Shown here piece after piece: positions 7,700 through 51,284 of a stretch of 64,000 nt of DNA (positions are counted from its first letter, which is position 1; each line of letters opens with the position of its first letter). The notes under the pieces are model-generated. The model ran no database searches and had not been told where the DNA came from. It worked only from the letters and a program-made list of their open reading frames with translations. The DNA comes from a virus (lineage: Duplodnaviria; Caudoviricetes): positions 416,001 through 480,000 of IMG/VR virus record IMGVR_UViG_3300037484_000435, one strand, 5' to 3'. The position numbers and the translations under genes are program-made.

Positions 7700-10600
7700 A
7701 TGAAAACTAATAAATCCCCGATGGTGCCTTTTTGGCTCCGCGTCTTTATGATGGTTACTTACCCATTCATATGGGCGGGCCAAAAGATAAAGAAATTGTT
7801 TGAGGTCTAAATGTTAACTTACAGACGAAAATGTAAGTCCTCTCCCTGTTTTTGGGAAGACGACGTCGACCGTAAATTTGAAGAAAATCCAATAGACTAC
7901 AGGAAAGATTCTACCTATGAGTGTCCTGAGTGTGGAAAGATAAATCTAGAGATTGAATTGAAAGACGAAGGAAAAATCTGGCAAATATGGACACCAAAAG
8001 GTTGTGCTACTTTTGACCCTCGATTCTGGGACACAATTATAGATAAGTATAAAGAGGAACCCGATGATAAAACAGCTAAAGTTTAAAATATACCGCCATG
8101 AATGTTATGATTGCGGGCACACTACCTGTAGAGATTTCGTGGTAGAACAGCCAATATGCGTAGAATGTAAGTCCACCACTCCTCCAATAGTTACGGAAGA
8201 AGAGCTAATAAGGGAGATAGAACTATATGATACCTACACACCCGAAGATTATGAGCGAGCCAAAAAAGTTGCCGAGGATATTTTAGCGGGGGTGCCCTTG
8301 GAAGAAATAGATGAACTTGAGTTAGGGGACAATATAAAAGATTCACGAATACCTGCTCTCTTTATGCGAGCTTGTCTTCTATCTGGTGGCGGTGCTGTTC
8401 TAGGAGAAAAGGCGTTTACAGAATGTTCGGTTGTGGTGCTTAAAGATACCAATGACAAAACAATTAAATCGGAACGAGGAAGGTATTACTAAAATGACTC
8501 ATGAAGAAAAGGTTAAGATATTAGAAATATTTAACAGAACCACGGACACTCCTTGGACTGATGAGGAAAAACGCCAACTCATGTATAATTATAGAGTTTG
8601 GGCTGCTGCTCTAACAGGCCCAATTGTTAAACGAATAGATGAATCTGGGTTGCGAAAGTCAATCAAAGTTGTTAAGCTTAATAGGATAAAAAAGGTAAAC
8701 GGTGTGGCGGAAGCTAATCCACTGGTAGTAAAACCCGGGACCCGCTGTTGGAACGGATCGGGTTATAAGCCTTACATAGTTAAGAAGGACGGGTTAGTTA
8801 AAAGTGTCACAGCACAAGCTGCGGGGAGCTTAAGGTTAGGAAGAGTTACCCCCCGAAAATATTGATAAAATGGTAAAAAAGGTAGCTAGTGCTATAATCG
8901 ACTGTGAGGCTGGGGCGATTCTGGATTTAAGGTATCAAGACAAAAATGCTAGCATTACACTTTATGTATTCAGAGACTTCGAGGCCCACGATGACCCCAG
9001 CTTAGTAAGACAGCAGAAGATAGGAATCTTCGGATGGCAAGAATTCGCAGTGGTAGCGGAGTAAGGAGGTAAAGGTGGATAAGATAGACGTAGATGTAGT
9101 TCCTGAAAATAGGTCTATAGCTGATTGGGAATGGCACGAAGCTCACGGGGATAAACAAGCAATCGAGTATATGAATGCTTATCGAAAAGCACTATATGAT
9201 GAAAAGGACCCATGTCATAGTTTTGCAAAACGTGGCGTTGCTATGACAGCAAATTTTTTAAAATGTTATGGAAGGACCAAGGAAAGAAAAGATATGGATA
9301 CTAAATTTTTCTCCGCTAATGGAGAAGTAAATGTAGAAGAAATTTTAGAAAAAGGAAGGACTTACTACTTTCATTACCAAGGCCCCGGCCAACAAGTAGA
9401 ATCTGTAACTAAAACAAGATTATCTGGGGCCACCTATCCAATAACTACACAGAGCCTTAACGCCTTGATAGACAAAATAAACGAACTAGAAGACCGTTTA
9501 GAGAAAATAGAGCAACCGAGTTAGTAATGGGGTCAGCAAATGATAGAGAAGAAAGTAGACGTCGAATGTTGGGATTGTATGGAATTAGATGGCGAAGGGG
9601 AAAAACCTAATTTTAAGCTAATCTGTCTCAAAGGACGTGACCTATATAAAAAGGAAGGCGATCGTTGTCCTGATTATGACTGGAACGAAGTAAATGATCG
9701 CCCATGGTATGAAACGAATGAGTAGATTTTATGTGGTAGAAAACCCACTCAAAATGAAAGCAATACGAAGTGTAAAAAAAGAAAAAGATGGTAAACCTTA
9801 CTATCCTTTCAGATATTGGCCCCGCGGCGACTCAGCCTCAATGCGTGCAGTATGCAACATGTCACGTCGGTGGGAACGTTACTCAATAGCCCGTGACCTG
9901 TTATGGGATAAGGGTCTAGAGGTGCCTGCAAAAGTAAACGATATGATAGACAAGTCAGAAAAATGGTTAGAAGGTTGGGGATTTCTCTGTATGCAGGATA
10001 TGCCACCTGATTTTCAAAAAGTGCTGAATGAACATTTTTGGGAGTTAATTTAATGCTCGACATACTAACTATCAAAAGAGCTCGGCAAGTTCTAGAAGAA
10101 ATAAAAGATTGGGCCCTCTGCCCCATATGCCAAGGCAAGGTGCAGGATGTTTTTGATTTGGAGACACCTGTATGCAAGGTGTGCCATGGGTGGGGCCGAG
10201 TAGCCCCAAAGGAGAATATTCAAGATGGCTAAATTAATTTGTTCTAAGTGTGGGAGTAAAAAATTTGAACCGTGGTCCAGCTCAACCCTAATGATAGGGC
10301 CAAATAAGCACACTTATACTTGTGCTCAATGCGGAAACCAAGAAGAGGTATGGGATAGTGGGGAGGCTTTCCAGCCCATGGAAGTTAACATTAGTCCTAA
10401 GGACAGAGTAGTAAAGAGGTAAAATTATGACAAACATAGTAGCAGGAAAAGTAGAGTTTTGTGACTCCAAAAAGGTTTTGGACATTCTGTATAACGAAAA
10501 TTTGGGCCATGTTTTAGTGGGTAATTATGTTCGTTTTGATGTGATAGTTAAGTACGGAAATTCACTATTAAATAGTGTGCCCATGAAGATTAAACTTAGT

Positions 10601-44129: not shown

Positions 44130-45461
44130 GCACCTCCTGCCCCTTCAAAGTATTTCTCCGGATGAGCACAGATATCATCCACCAGATTATGACGCCTGTC
44201 TGCCTCGATAAAGGCTTCCCATTCACGGGTTTCTACGAGGAAAGTCCTCAGAATGGTCCACAACTCTCTGGACTCCTTTGTTGCTGGGACTCTCTCTCGG
44301 ATTACGAGTTGGGCAATGAACCCGTCGCGAGTTTCTGGCAGATACTTGAATTTTATATTACCTATTTGAGCAACATAAATGTTCTCGTCCTTTACCCACT
44401 TCCCCACAGTGATTCCCTTGATCATTTCAATCGCCCACTGTTCCATGGTCATTCCTTTCCGAGTGGATCCGTCCATTCAGGCTGTTTTCGTATTTCCAAA
44501 ACTTGGTCAAATGTTAGATTTGCCATGTCCCAACCCTTTTCTGCACAGTAGTTCTTAGAGAACTCTCCACGCATTTCAAGGACCTTCCTTGTGTCTTCGT
44601 CGATGGAATTGTTCACATCAACCAAAACGTTGTCACCCATTTTGAGATGCCACATATTGTCTTCCTTCCCGCCGTTTTACCTACGTTAACCCTTCACACA
44701 AAGAAATGAACTACCCACCCGATGCAAAGAAGTAGAATTAGGATGAGGAATTGGAAAAGCATCCTAGTCAAGGCGATCTTATAAGTGTCGTCACTAACAG
44801 CGTTGTCTATGTCTTCGTTTCGTACACGGTGTGTTAGTAGTGACGCTATTACCGAAATGCCTATAGCTACGGGGATAGATATCACAGGGAGTCCAAAGGT
44901 TGTAACTATAAACCAAGCCCAGAGAAGTGAGAATATAATTCCCTCAGCCACCAGATTTATAATCATGATTGCCGTTAACAAGAGAGCCATTTACGTTTTT
45001 CCTTTCTTTGTCATTACTGCTAACTCGACCGATTTTCTCCTTAAAACGTTTGTCCTACTGCCACGACAAACCAAATGGACACAGTAGGACAAACTCGGGG
45101 CAACTGACTAGTCAGCCGCCATTACGAATTCCAAAGGACCCTCGTCCTCGGCAGGGGCCACATAGCCAGGAAGGAACTTGTCCAACCCATCGTGACCCGC
45201 CTTGATTGCGGCCCGCACACCACGAATGAATCCGCGATGGGTGAGCTTCCCACCCGACAACGCGATTATCACTCGCTCGATCTGGGCGGGGTCAGTCAAG
45301 GTTGTGCCCTTACCGTCCTTGGCCTTCTTGCCCTTCATCCACTCCAGATTGGGTGTGATTGCCGACTCGGTCCTGTTCCACACCCCGCCTTTTACGGAGC
45401 ACTGCCTTACCTTACCATCGTTGCGTTTCATAGTTTCCTCCACGCTTTTTGGTTGTGACCA

Positions 45462-46025
45462 TTAAATGGTCTGAATCCACCTTCCGAACGCCTCTCCGAG
45501 CATCTGAGTAAACTCAGACTTTGAGATGTCCAACGGAACGAAATCATTGTTGTGGTCATAAATGCAGATGGTATCGAAACCCTGCACTGTAGAGATTCTC
45601 TGTTCCAGAGCCCCGAAGACCAAACGATCTACGAACTTCTGGATGCTTCGTTTCGTTGCCCGTTGCTCGAAATCATCATAGAGTTCGTCCATCTGGTCAA
45701 CAACTTCCTCTGACACTTCAGCACGGAAGGTGTTCCACAAGGCCTCAAAGTCAATCCTCACATCTTCCGCTGGAAGCGGGAACCTTTCAGGGTCTGCTTG
45801 ATGAAGTGCCCGAAGGACTATTTCCTCATTGGATGTTGAGTCATCGAGAGTTTCCGCAACTTCCTCTATGGCATCTTTGGCCTCTTTAAGACCAATATTG
45901 CCCCTCATGCGAATCTTCTTTATCAGTTGGATTTTTCCGTCTTCTCCAGAACGGTCCTGCCATCTTATAGGCATTTTATCCTCCACTTTTTGTAAGTTTC
46001 TTTGGAAATAAGGATGGGGCGACAT
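45462..46025 (-). CDS. Protein containing a ribosomal L7/L12 C-terminal-like domain
   Basis: KIQLIKKIRMRGNIGLKEAKDAIEE matches the L7/L12 KI.VIK.VR..TGLGLKEAK..VE motif. Confidence 0.65.
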   Translation of the reverse strand: MSPHPYFQRNLQKVEDKMPIRWQDRSGEDGKIQLIKKIRMRGNIGLKEAKDAIEEVAETLDDSTSNEEIVLRALHQADPERFPLPAEDVRIDFEALWNTFRAEVSEEVVDQMDELYDDFEQRATKRSIQKFVDRLVFGALEQRISTVQGFDTICIYDHNNDFVPLDISKSEFTQMLGEAFGRWIQTI

Positions 46026-46929
46026 GTGGTTGCATATCGCCCGTTAGGGATTAGCTGAAATTGTAGTGACTCGAATCACAATCCAGACAATCCCTAGCCC
46101 CCGACGAACAACGAATACAGGGTTTAGCACCCGTGTTATATCCGTAGCCGAGGTCATCCAAGACGTTTACGGACCTTTCTGCGAGGAACTCTTCGTCCTC
46201 GCGAATTGTCCGCTTCTCTGTCCGACGATCCACCTTTCGGCCCATCCTCAACTCCTTTCGAAAGAAAAAAGGCACACAGGTAATTACCTGCATGCCTGTT
46301 GGGTTCGGGGATTACCGTTTTCCAAAAGAGGTTCCAAGGTTTTCCTTCAGGAGGGCACCGAGGCTGGAAGCGGGTTGCTCCTCTTCTTCGGTGTACGGAA
46401 CAGGATTATCTGGGCACTGACAACAATGGTCGTCATACCCAAAATTGTCCTTATACTTCCTGCACACCGTCTGGCAATACTCCTCCTGTTCCTCTTTGGT
46501 CACCTCGTGGCGATTGAAGACCACTTTAGAGCCTGAGATATTGATGTCGTTACTTGTCAGACGACGCCCATCAATAGACCAAGCCTCTATCTCGATCTTC
46601 ACCCTGCAACACGAACTGTGAATCAGTGCTCGAAAGTCTGGATGGTCCACGATCTTTCTCCACAAATAATCGATGTCTGTAGCAGACATAGGTATTGTGA
46701 GTCGATCGTTGGTTATGATGGTAACCAAATAGACCTTCCACGCTTCCGACTCCCAGCGGGCGGGCCTGATGAAGGTCCAAACCGCAATGGCCATTGCTGT
46801 GGTGTAATCGATCCAATTCCGGATCTGACCATCAACCACAAAAAGAGTTTCCTTGGTTTCTCGGTTGTTTGACATGATCGACCTCCGCTCTTTTGGTTGG
46901 CGTGCGATGCACGCAGGCTATCTTTTATA

Positions 46930-46980
46930 ACCCATTTATCATTTAATATACCTTGGGAAAGAGGGTACTTTCCTTTAAGG
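46930..46980. repeat. Dispersed hairpin element, copy 7
   Basis: ACCC..TATA-CCTTG-GGAAAG-agggta-CTTTCC-TTTAAGG. Confidence 0.75.
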
Positions 46981-47012
46981 TAAATTAGAAAAACATGTGA
47001 GTAGGTGTATGT

Positions 47013-48204
47013 AAAATTTTTTAACTAACTTAGTTTTTAGAGTAAGAAGTTAAAAATTTTAATGATGAGGTGATCTCAATTTGTTAACCTACAAATTCAG
47101 AATGTATCCAACAAAAATACAACAGGCAAAGCTCTGGAAACATGCAAATTTGTTGAATCGGCTTTACAATTACTTCCTAAAACAACGTTTAGAAGCATTT
47201 GAAAAGAATGAGCCAAGAATTTATCGCTATCAGCAACAGGCTGAATTGGTTCAATTAAAAAAGGATATCCCAGAGATTAAAGAGATCCATGCTCAAGTTT
47301 TACAACAAGTTCCGTTAAGATTGGATAATGCTTATACCGCGTTTCTTAAGAGAATCAAATTAAAACAAGGAAAGCCTTGCTATAGGAGTTGCCACAATTT
47401 CTTTGGAATTACTTATCCTCAGAGCGGGTACAAAATAACTAAAACAAGTCTCTGCACAAAAGCATATGGAAAAATAAAACTTTTCCAGCACCGAGGAGTT
47501 ATTGGAGAAATAAAACAAATCAAAATAATTTGCAAAAATGAGAAGTGGTTCGTATGTGTAACAACTGACCACAGGTTACCAACTTCTACCTCTGGGTCTA
47601 GAATGATTGGTTTAGATTTAGGTATTGCTAACTTGGTAGCAACCTCCGAAGGGGAAATTATACCCAATAGAAGTCACGCACGTTACTTTAATAAACAAAT
47701 CAACAAACTGAGATCACATCAGGATAAAAAATGCAAAAAAAACTCAAGGAGGCATAAATTTCTTTCTAGGTCTATTAGTAAGTTGTATGGTGCAAAAGTT
47801 AGAAAAACAAATGATTTTTTGCACAAGGTGTCTAGACGCCTAACCCTAAAATATGATACAATTGTTATTGAAGACCTTACACTGAAGAAGATGTCGGAAT
47901 CTAATATTAGAGGGTTAAACCGCGAATTGCGGAACAGTTGCTTAGCACGATTTATATATTACTTAAGTTACAAAGCCGAACGTTTAATAAAGGTTAATCC
48001 TATGAATACTTCCAAGATGTGTAATCGTTGTGGCCGTATTCATGATATGCCTTTATCAAAACGTACATTGGTTTGTGAGTGTGGAAATGTTGTAGATCGA
48101 GATGTTAATGCAGCTCAAAACATACTTTGCTTGGGACGAGCCTATTTATTAAATTTAATAGATAGTACTGCGATACTAACGCAGGAAGTGCTTGCACAGT
48201 TCAC
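47013..48204 (+). mobile_element. Non-autonomous IS200/IS605-type element carrying tnpB
   Basis: Left hairpin 47013-26/47048-60; right-end-like CAGGAAG..GTTCAC ending at 48204; opposite strand to its neighbours; no tnpA; left boundary approximate. Confidence 0.6.
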
Positions 48205-48244
48205 TAACCCTTCTTTCATGAAATATAACCTTAAAGTAGGGTAA
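47081..48244 (+). CDS. tnpB: RNA-guided endonuclease TnpB
   Basis: YKFRMYPT HTH, RuvC-I IGLDLG, RuvC-II VIEDL, zinc finger CNRCG..CECG, RuvC-III DRDVNAAQNI; catalytic residues intact. Confidence 0.95.
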   Translation: MLTYKFRMYPTKIQQAKLWKHANLLNRLYNYFLKQRLEAFEKNEPRIYRYQQQAELVQLKKDIPEIKEIHAQVLQQVPLRLDNAYTAFLKRIKLKQGKPCYRSCHNFFGITYPQSGYKITKTSLCTKAYGKIKLFQHRGVIGEIKQIKIICKNEKWFVCVTTDHRLPTSTSGSRMIGLDLGIANLVATSEGEIIPNRSHARYFNKQINKLRSHQDKKCKKNSRRHKFLSRSISKLYGAKVRKTNDFLHKVSRRLTLKYDTIVIEDLTLKKMSESNIRGLNRELRNSCLARFIYYLSYKAERLIKVNPMNTSKMCNRCGRIHDMPLSKRTLVCECGNVVDRDVNAAQNILCLGRAYLLNLIDSTAILTQEVLAQFTNPSFMKYNLKVG

Positions 48245-48264
48245 GAGGGTACCCTAATTGAAGG
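48207..48264. repeat. Dispersed hairpin element, copy 8 (overlaps the tnpB stop)
   Basis: ACCC..TATAA-CCTT-aaag-TAGGGTA-agaggg-TACCCTA-attg-AAGG. Confidence 0.7.
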
Positions 48265-48312
48265 ATATATAGAAGAGGTAGGTAAGCATACACGTACATG
48301 CCCATTTTTATA

Positions 48313-48362
48313 ACCCTTCAGTCTTTGAATATACTTCTGGGTTAGAGGGTCTAACTTGAAGG
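48313..48362. repeat. Dispersed hairpin element, copy 9
   Basis: ACCC..TATA-CTTC-tgg-GTTAG-agggt-CTAAC-tt-GAAGG. Confidence 0.7.
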
Positions 48363-48798
48363 TACATTGACTTTTGTATTGTCTTAGTCTTTGTTTGATT
48401 GATTAGGCATATAAGCCCCTACATGAGGGACTTATACACCTTTAGCTGGATTCTATGTCCGAATTGTCTTTTCGGGATAGAGGGAAATCTCCCATTGAAT
48501 AGCAAGAATTTGATTGGAGCGACTACCGATGTTGTGGCGACTCACAACTTCAAGACCCAGATCGCCATAATCACCACCAGTCTGCATCAACGAGGTGTGA
48601 ACAAAAAGCCAGAGATAAGTCATTTGGATTCCTCCTGTTTACGAGCATGGAGCAGACATGCAAGAGTTTGTTCTGCATTTGAATAAGCCATTTGTAACCA
48701 AACCTTGGTTTTCTCGTTACTATATTCTCCCTGAGCCTTTTCTACATCTCGTCGAAGCATTTCCGCATCTTCAATAAGGTCAAGTAGGGGAGTTACAC

Positions 48799-49296
48799 TC
48801 ATGGAGCTTTCCTTTCTCGTTTTTGTAGATTACTTCTAATTTTTGTCAACCGAGAACAAAACTCTTGAGTAGTGAGTATTGTTTGTCGAGGGTCGTTTTT
48901 GCCGATGGTGTGAGTAAGAACTGCATCTCGTGATGCTAAGAGGGCACGTCGGGCGGAATCATTCTGAATGAACATTGCATTGTAAGCACGATCCAACAGC
49001 TCTTGGTATTCTTTTGAGAACCTATCGATTTCTTTCCCACGCCACCATATCTTTCCGTCTCTTTGCCACTTCTTGCCCTTACCCTTGAACTTAGCCTTTC
49101 TCCCCACCAGACGGCAAACTTCTATCTGCATATCAGGATTGGAGAACTTCAAACTTTGTAAGAAGCCTTCCATCGATGCTATGTTTATGCCGTCCAGAAC
49201 GAAAGGATGTGGGGAAAAGTTTGATAAGGCATCCGCTGGGCAGGCTTTTCCGCTTCCTATATCCATAACTATCACCTCGAAAGTTTTCTCCTCCAC
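48799..49296 (-). CDS. T4 gp30.3-like (NADAR-superfamily) protein
   Basis: ALSNFSPHPFVLDG..ASMEGFLQSLKF..IWWRGKEIDR..FIQNDSARRALL. Confidence 0.7.
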   Translation of the reverse strand: MEEKTFEVIVMDIGSGKACPADALSNFSPHPFVLDGINIASMEGFLQSLKFSNPDMQIEVCRLVGRKAKFKGKGKKWQRDGKIWWRGKEIDRFSKEYQELLDRAYNAMFIQNDSARRALLASRDAVLTHTIGKNDPRQTILTTQEFCSRLTKIRSNLQKRERKAP

Positions 49297-49756
49297 AATG
49301 ATGACTGAAGGCTGTTGTCGCTCCTTTCATGCTGGCGCATCCCCTCTACCAAGATTTCATATTGACCCTCACTAGGCCAAGAAGGTTTCCAAGATAAAGG
49401 TGGAATAAAATTAGTCACGAATTCCCACCCAGCATTTTCCAAAGTTTGTATTTCTTTTGATGATAGAATCATTCCTCTCATCCTTACCTCCCCTTTAAGA
49501 TTTTTTTATTCCCCGCCCGCTTAATCACAGGGTATGTGTGTTATTGAGACAGCATATGGAGTTGTCAGCATCGCATAACATTTACCATCCTTCTTCACGT
49601 AACGAATTCTATTGGTGAGTTGTTCTGTTGGTGATCGTGTCTCTACAGGAACTTGATGAGTAACAGCAAAGTAAACGACTGAAGAGTAGAATACAAACGC
49701 CATCAGAACGACAATCACAATATCTTTTGTAGTCCCACGGACTAACATCCGTTGCC

Positions 49757-49975
49757 TCACGTACTTCCTCCTGTTACTGGTGTGGGTTTAGGGTCTTTCT
49801 TGGCGGGATTATACCACCCCTCGGGATTTCCCTTCAACAGGAACGTACACCCGCTAATTATTCTGTATGCGGTATTCCCGCATTTACATGGAATTTTCTC
49901 TTCAGCGTCTTTCATCGAAATAAACACTTCTGTTTTTTCGTTGCATACTGAACAATAATACTCGTAAATTGGCAC
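49757..49975 (-). CDS. FmdB-family zinc-ribbon protein
   Basis: MPIYEYYCSVC..CKCG..RIIS..GWY. Confidence 0.85.
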   Translation of the reverse strand: MPIYEYYCSVCNEKTEVFISMKDAEEKIPCKCGNTAYRIISGCTFLLKGNPEGWYNPAKKDPKPTPVTGGST

Positions 49976-50290
49976 ACTTATCCTCCTATTCTCATTTAAT
50001 ACTTTATGTTTTGTCCCCGCGGTCCTTCTTCATGGGTCCACTGGCCTCCCCCGAAAAGGGTGAGGGGTATTCCTCGCCATCCAGTATTAGACTATCATCT
50101 TTAAGCCACTGTTGCAAACGAGGAATGAGCTGTTCAACTTGGTCCTGTGTTAACTGGAAGTAAGCTCCCTTACAGAATATCGTGAGCCTATTAAAGTCAT
50201 CGCCCAACAATGAACACTCATTACCGTTGGCATCCACAAACTCATAGTGGGTGTATCCATTACCATCAGCCCACCCGTAATTTGTTTTCT

Positions 50291-50920
50291 TCATGCTACC
50301 CTCGTATCAAAAACTTTTTCATCTGGTTTAGGGCATATACCCTTACCATGATTAACGGGTTCTTCACAAGCATAGGGGTTAAATTTTTTTCCGCGTGCGT
50401 CCTCGGTATATTGGGATATTCCTACCCCAAACCCGCTTCCTCTACCTGCTTGAGATATGCGGTCAATTAGTTCTATCTGCCTCTCCCCCGGGGGCTTGCT
50501 ACTCCAGCCACGAATAAGGGCCCTAGAAAGGTCATCAGCAGGATTTGCACGTGACCCTATCCATTCAACCTTCCACCAGCGAAAACGCGACAGTTCGGCC
50601 CATATGGCTCTCTGGTAGAATTTGTATTTTCTCTTCTTAGACGGTGGCTGGTCTATAGATTTAGTTACGCTATCGTTGTCTCCCATTGCTTTTATCATAG
50701 GCACACCCCTGTTAGCGGTATGCTTGAGGAGCCACAAAAGAGCCATGTATTCTCCCTCTTGTGTATCCCCAATCTCGGGAACCACGATAGAATCCACATG
50801 TACCACCTGTTGGTATGGGTTTACCACTACTATTCCTAATCCTGTGATGTGTTCCTCAACACAAGTCACAGCATCAAAATAGCCTTGGTAAAACCAATCT
50901 TTTATTCCACTCTCTTTCAC
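50291..50920 (-). CDS. Second RNase HI-like protein
   Basis: GYFDA, GEYMALL, MGDNDSV, KVEWIGSRANPADDLSR. Confidence 0.65.
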   Translation of the reverse strand: MKESGIKDWFYQGYFDAVTCVEEHITGLGIVVVNPYQQVVHVDSIVVPEIGDTQEGEYMALLWLLKHTANRGVPMIKAMGDNDSVTKSIDQPPSKKRKYKFYQRAIWAELSRFRWWKVEWIGSRANPADDLSRALIRGWSSKPPGERQIELIDRISQAGRGSGFGVGISQYTEDARGKKFNPYACEEPVNHGKGICPKPDEKVFDTRVA

Positions 50921-51284
50921 TTCACTTTTTTAACCTCCGTAATTTATGGGTAGGTGACGAAGCACCTACCCGTGAATACATTTAAACCTCTAGTCTATCC
51001 AGAGCATTAGCCACAAGTTGGCTGAGAGATTCCAGCTCAGCACATATAACATTAATCCGCTCGGCATACTCAGGAGTCTCATTTACTGCTCTCAGCATTG
51101 CCTTCACATTCTCAGCCACAGGCAGGACTGGTCTTGATACAGGGTCCAACCTTTTAATTAGTTTTTCTATGTTCTCTCTGAGGACGACTGATTCAGACTC
51201 TAAGTGTCCAATACCAGTAGGAATTTGTTTTGACTCTGTTATAATACTACCTGTTTGTGTTTGTGTTCTTTCCATTTCTTTTCC

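Follow-up and report, generated by a model that had tools for sequence, protein, structure and literature searches.

TnpB7 of Sulfolobus islandicus (SisTnpB, here SisTnpB7) belongs to IS605-type elements that end in TTCAC, and its guide follows directly after this end. TTTAA is both the insertion site and the TAM (functionally NTTAA). Its own TTCAC-flanked site escapes cleavage, a single change at TAM position -2 produces a weak TAM, and weak TAMs demand a full guide match (PMC11043419). ISDra2 of Deinococcus radiodurans (structures 8H1J and 8EXA) is complete with tnpA and both end hairpins and has the TAM TTGAT. Its guide of about 16 nt is copied from the flank, positions -6 to -1 of its omega-RNA read GUUCAC, the UUC of this motif takes part in a pseudoknot and the WED domain holds the guide-proximal stem 4 (PMC8612924, PMC10097598). 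IS608 recognizes its cleavage sites through base pairing, the partner being the 4 nt directly 5' of each subterminal hairpin (PMC3201880).

The locus analyzed here resembles each of these systems in part. With SisTnpB7 it shares the TTCAC end, a predicted guide right after it and a predicted TTTAA insertion site and TAM; unlike SisTnpB7, it lies in a phage, has neither tnpA nor a left hairpin, and its terminal omega-RNA hairpin is truncated. With ISDra2 it shares the domain order and the RuvC triad of the protein (E 5e-23), the layout of the omega-RNA end and the pseudoknot-forming UUC, although identity between the two is low and the TAM and completeness of ISDra2 differ. The covariation seen in its family matches the cleavage-site pairing of IS608; unlike IS608, this copy keeps the right-end 4-nt sequences and has lost the hairpins that TnpA binds. 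Like T4-type free-standing homing endonucleases, or TnpB in 'non-restorative' homing, it is a nuclease gene without mobility machinery between conserved phage genes and would cut only the allele that lacks its own gene (PMC13565253); unlike the T4-type enzymes, it would recognize its target through an RNA guide, and its homing is inferred. The hairpin elements beside it might be compared with T4-type promoter-stem-loop cassettes, whose mark is a repeated promoter-like box and stem-loop upstream of genes; here there are about 13-15 copies of fixed orientation, each upstream of a gene.

We consider it highly probable that the locus is a stranded IS605-type TnpB element at the edge of a tandem phage control element and that, if active, it cuts only the insertion-free allele. 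The element itself is ordinary, one more of a known kind.

The tnpB gene and its phage setting

The window, a stretch of 64,000 nucleotides, corresponds to positions 416001-480000 of a 545,322-bp IMG/VR virus record that is rated complete. The genes around tnpB are all on the minus strand and tnpB itself is on the plus strand. The gene lies in an AT-rich island (about 46880-48420) with a GC content of 0.30-0.38, compared with 0.45-0.50 in the flanks.

The tnpB ORF (47081-48244, plus strand) encodes 387 aa and starts with TTG, ahead of which a Shine-Dalgarno-like site is found at 47067-47074. Its product matched three Pfam domains, HTH_OrfB_IS605 (E = 4e-8), OrfB_IS605, the RuvC domain (3.5e-17), and Cas12f1-like_TNB, the zinc ribbon (1.5e-16), all of them passing the curated cut-offs. 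The RuvC triad (D179, E264 and D341) and the zinc-finger cysteines of the CxxC...CxC motif (C314, C317, C332 and C334) were invariant in an alignment of 20 sequences and also aligned with ISDra2-type structures. Since domains, triad and cysteines are in place and agree with these structures, the protein is, as judged from its sequence, intact with its catalytic residues present. The initial annotation, which had described an intact TnpB lying antisense between copies of a hairpin element, was right on both counts.

A search of a large protein collection returned 736 TnpB homologues, the best of them with identities of 74, 65, 65 and 63%. No cluster mate at 90% identity or above was present, and close TnpB relatives were not found in IMG/VR. 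Relatives at 74% identity or less are too distant to date the insertion or to reveal selection on the ORF. The homologues are usually 371-374 aa long, against 387 aa here. Homology of the ORF to its relatives stops near 48204, and the remaining 48205-48244 forms a tail of 13 codons. The relatives have a TAG stop codon 5 nt ahead of the element end; in the window copy it reads CAG, and translation therefore reads through into the adjoining hairpin element.

A profile search recovered a loose family of about 13-15 hairpin elements, located between 23291 and 48365 of the window and at 55, 59, 84, 127 and 514 kb of the genome. Nine members lie inside the window, in keeping with the copy numbering used previously. 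Strict copies, defined by pattern and HMM, numbered only three in the 545-kb genome: copy 7 (46923-46990), copy 8 (48205-48270) and copy 9 (48306-48365). A gene follows each element, whose plus-strand form has the orientation opposite to that gene; copy 7, for instance, is about 45 nt upstream of the start of the minus-strand gene at 46312-46875. It is probably on the sense strand of these genes that the elements act, reading there as a hairpin followed by an AT-rich box, and we infer that they are promoter-like control elements. The conserved hairpin loop and AT-rich box do not match a sense-strand sigma-70 promoter.

The spacers between copies 7 and 8 and between copies 8 and 9 can be aligned, and both are closed by a T-run followed by A. 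The stretch to the left of the insertion (46991-47019), made up of the copy 7/8 phage spacer and the T-run of copy 8, aligns with the copy 8/9 spacer. This alignment places the insertion inside the tandem, with copy 8 split between its T-run and its TAACCC box, so that the portion at 48205-48270 is cut off from its own T-run. The hairpins of copies 7 and 8 were considered as possible end hairpins of the transposon and rejected: copy 8 lies beyond the conserved right end, and members of the family occur elsewhere without a TnpB.

Ends of the element, omega-RNA and loss of mobility

Scans of IMG/VR and of metagenomes, queried with the protein alignment, yielded about 45 related loci with 46-63% identity, several of them on phage contigs of 90-394 kb. 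Among 35 non-redundant relatives the DNA could be aligned up to ...AGTTCA(C/T) and diverged immediately afterwards. In the window this terminus ends at 48204. The comparison of relatives thus confirmed the right end that had been proposed from the GTTCAC motif, and with it the start of the guide template at 48205. The terminus (48185-48204, plus strand) consists of GAAG (48185-48188), a hairpin remnant (48189-48196), a linker (48197-48200) and the TCAC cleavage site (48201-48204).

RNAalifold analysis of 36 sequences predicted four omega-RNA helices, in which 17 of 21 pairs showed compensatory changes. Three of these helices are kept in the window on the plus strand (48129-48141, 48142-48165 and 48168-48184). 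The fourth, the terminal hairpin or stem 4, is formed between GAAG and the last eight bases, with about 8-9 bp and a 4-nt loop, in every one of the 35 relatives. Of the 36 family members compared, the window copy is the only one in which it is cut to 3-4 bp, and 48189-48196 is all that is left of a right-end hairpin of about 20 nt. The predicted scaffold in the window thus comprises the three covarying helices, the terminal GAAG...TTCAC with the pseudoknot-forming UUC, and a guide-proximal hairpin of 3-4 bp. An Rfam scan of 46500-48800 gave no match. One relative (L044:2430-2669) carries the terminal right-end hairpin in two tandem copies.

Twelve independent left ends of relatives shared the order (T/A/G)TTAA, CC, an A-rich stretch, GAAAT and an 8-bp hairpin, with GAAAT and the hairpin 8-13 nt inside the end. 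Upstream of tnpB in the window the only such motif is TTTAA at 47020-47024 on the plus strand. The right ends of loci L004-L088 supplied a second line of evidence, since the base next to the hairpin and the final base of the element covaried perfectly: the pairs were G and C in the TCAC group (GAAG/TCAC), A and T in the TCAT group (GAAA/TCAT), and T and A in the one element that has TCAA (GAAT/TCAA). At the left end the base beside the hairpin is T, and by the same pairing rule the cleavage site there should have A as its last base, which gives TTAA. The left flanks of relatives, the pairing rule and the SisTnpB7 data agree on (N)TTAA as the TAM, which is thereby shown at sequence level for the family, and TTTAA at 47020-47024 is the predicted TAM and left cleavage site of this copy; the TTTTA given in the initial annotation is not supported. 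TTAAC was also considered as TAM and was disfavored by both the pairing rule and the SisTnpB7 data.

The left boundary would accordingly fall at about 47024/47025, to within about 1 nt. Joining the flanks at this boundary restores an element start like that of the sibling copies, with no target duplication; a junction after 47023 gives a slightly better match to these copies. By homology of its ends to those of relatives, the TnpB-only IS605-family element occupies approximately 47025-48204 on the plus strand (about 1180 bp) and is AT-rich.

In many relatives tnpB directly follows a Y1 tnpA; others have only remnants or nothing. A search for Y1 tnpA (PF01797) gave no match in the complete 545-kb record, with control genomes scoring positive. 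The degenerate left end and tnpB leader (47025-47080, plus strand), the 56 nt from the boundary to the start codon, contain no left hairpin of the family type. A pairwise alignment had suggested a tnpA remnant upstream of tnpB, which was discarded when an nhmmer profile of 22 tnpA 3' ends gave no match. Lacking tnpA and the left hairpin, and with a mere vestige of the right one, the element could not be moved by the IS200/IS605 mechanism even if a host TnpA were present, and on these features we conclude that it cannot transpose. Four of eight related viral loci (L004, L005, L008 and L009, on contigs of 10-394 kb) keep tnpB and the full right end, whereas their left hairpin is gone and so is most or all of tnpA; copies carried by phages seem to lose the transposase side repeatedly.

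These features suggest the following course of events. An IS605-family element of the IS200/IS605 superfamily would have inserted 3' of TTTAA, separating the T-run of the middle control element from the TAACCC box, and a TnpB-only derivative of the insertion would be what remains. The omega-RNA would be templated by the 3' end of tnpB and run across the right end; because it crosses that end, its guide would be by construction the first 16-20 nt of copy 8. If nuclease and shortened omega-RNA work, the sole sequence that they could cut would be the uninterrupted allele, TTTAA joined to the start of copy 8. Such a target, in a sibling phage or in a repaired genome, would lead to homing or to retention of the element. 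The RNA-protein complex may already be disabled by the shortening of stem 4, which would leave no present function.

Carried further, this last point makes the locus a decaying remnant without function, a recent private accident in which the shortening of stem 4 and the loss of the stop codon mark the onset of decay and the complex no longer forms or cuts. We take this seriously, while judging it somewhat unlikely. It would explain why the terminal hairpin is reduced here and in none of the other 35 family members, at a stem whose ISDra2 equivalent is held by the WED domain, and it agrees with the lost stop codon, the degenerate left end and an AT content unlike that of the phage. A full-length ORF with all catalytic and zinc-binding residues, the retention of the three other omega-RNA helices and the pseudoknot UUC, and the tolerance of the ISDra2 C-terminal region to changes are harder to reconcile with it.

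An origin by cassette shuffling appears improbable. Under this explanation the block of copy 7, tnpB and copy 8 arrived by recombination between hairpin elements, as proposed for the T4-type promoter-stem-loop cassettes, which would account for the direct element repeats flanking tnpB and for the AT-richness of the entire island. Against it, the transposon ends exactly at a family-type TTTAA and a conserved TTCAC inside the island, the left flank is a normal inter-copy spacer, and no other hairpin-element member in the 545-kb genome adjoins a TnpB.

The guide and its possible targets

For a stranded TnpB element of the kind preferred here, the targets follow from the predicted 16-nt guide, templated by the first flank bases past the conserved right end (48205-48220, plus strand; to 48224 for 20 nt). 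This sequence covers the conserved 5' box and the spacer of copy 8, not the left arm of the hairpin as had been annotated. That the guide comes from a hairpin element holds in so far as it is the start of copy 8; it is nothing special, since TnpB guides are always copied from the flank. The guide thus matches the adjacent DNA for a trivial reason, and the locus as found is of small importance.

When the 545-kb genome was searched with the 16-nt guide at up to 2 mismatches, a single site was found, its own template. The initial annotation had pointed to a 9-nt match in copy 9 (at 48311) and to TAACCC in copy 7 (at 46928), both preceded by TTTTA, and these sequence facts are correct. Over the 16 nt, copies 7 and 9 each have 4 mismatches, the first at guide positions 7 and 10, respectively. 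The combination of a weak TAM and several mismatches predicts no cleavage, by analogy with SisTnpB7, and on this ground the sibling copies are not targets of the TnpB. A look-alike of TAM and guide start at 8781-8801 of the window (minus strand) was also dismissed, as it is no element copy and has 4 mismatches.

A wider action, in which the nuclease binds or cuts the hairpin-element family of this phage or of competing phages beyond the empty allele, had been put forward in the initial annotation and is very improbable. Its attraction is that the first 9 bases of the guide are the best-conserved box of the family and that TTTTA is one position off TTTAA, the -2 change that leaves a weak TAM in SisTnpB7. 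With such TAMs SisTnpB7 needs a full match, so the mismatches in copies 7 and 9 tell against it, and the lack of a proper TAM beside the element copies is what the annotation itself had named as speaking against its proposal. Nor do other sequences supply a target. Besides the genome result given above, the only exact matches to the 20-mer guide in IMG/VR fall within a 314-aa ORF of an AT-rich, unrelated virus (L030:537-556 and L031:5183-5202), where ACATT stands upstream in place of a TAM, and this match is taken as chance.

A domesticated RNA-guided repressor of the TldR type that binds the promoter-like element, as a guide lying in such an element and the immobility of the locus might recall, is scarcely credible, given that the inactivated RuvC site of that class is absent and the triad intact, that TTCAC, a flank not accepted by the homologous SisTnpB7, stands before the genomic target, and that there is no other matching site.

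Insertion-free alleles and related phages

Homing into empty alleles, the ordinary role mentioned in the initial annotation, would be a reasonable one for a stranded TnpB element. A search of metagenome contigs for the empty allele with a 26-mer found nothing. In IMG/VR the protein encoded to the left had no close relatives and the small protein to the right only a distant match. Exact-protein look-ups over 44694-51275 of the window gave a hint. Two contigs are on record for each of the flanking proteins P0121, P0122, P0127, P0128 and P0131, which are encoded on both sides of tnpB; for TnpB and one small neighbour there is one contig. A 56-aa neighbour of TnpB occurs in two variants with at least 90% identity, on short contigs. 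P0125 and P0126 are found on contigs of 2.4 and 5.3 kb. The look-ups suggest that a closely related phage population is present in the same data. The contig counts hint at siblings without the insertion, and differences in assembly or gene calling would explain them equally well.

A broader extension of the preferred reading is that in very large phages IS605 elements repeatedly lose the transposase and the left end and keep tnpB and the omega-RNA, as four of the eight viral loci and the present one have done, and that the survivors are free-standing RNA-guided homing endonucleases. This copy would then enter insertion-free siblings during co-infection by cutting the TTTAA-flanked middle element, and the contig counts would be a presence/absence polymorphism. 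We think this unlikely to hold as a whole. If an insertion-free sibling phage does exist, the pair would make a simple test system for RNA-guided homing between phages.

Two points have a use of their own. The covariation of the family right ends cleanly bears out the IS608 pairing rule in natural sequences and makes the TAM predictable from sequence alone. Stem 4 of the omega-RNA is also naturally shortened at this locus, which could reveal whether the stem is needed.

Two further tnpB genes are present in the genome outside the window (482380-483042 and 493365-494465). They are unrelated to the one described here, and each is about 30% identical to it; one has an internal TAA, and neither adjoins a hairpin-element copy. 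Comparison of the region with a GenBank phage collection returned just a short match to an unrelated conserved gene. The 165-aa neighbour gene at 48799-49296 of the window (minus strand) matched phrog_652 (E = 2e-48); within the region, DNA similarity to T4-like phages is confined to it.
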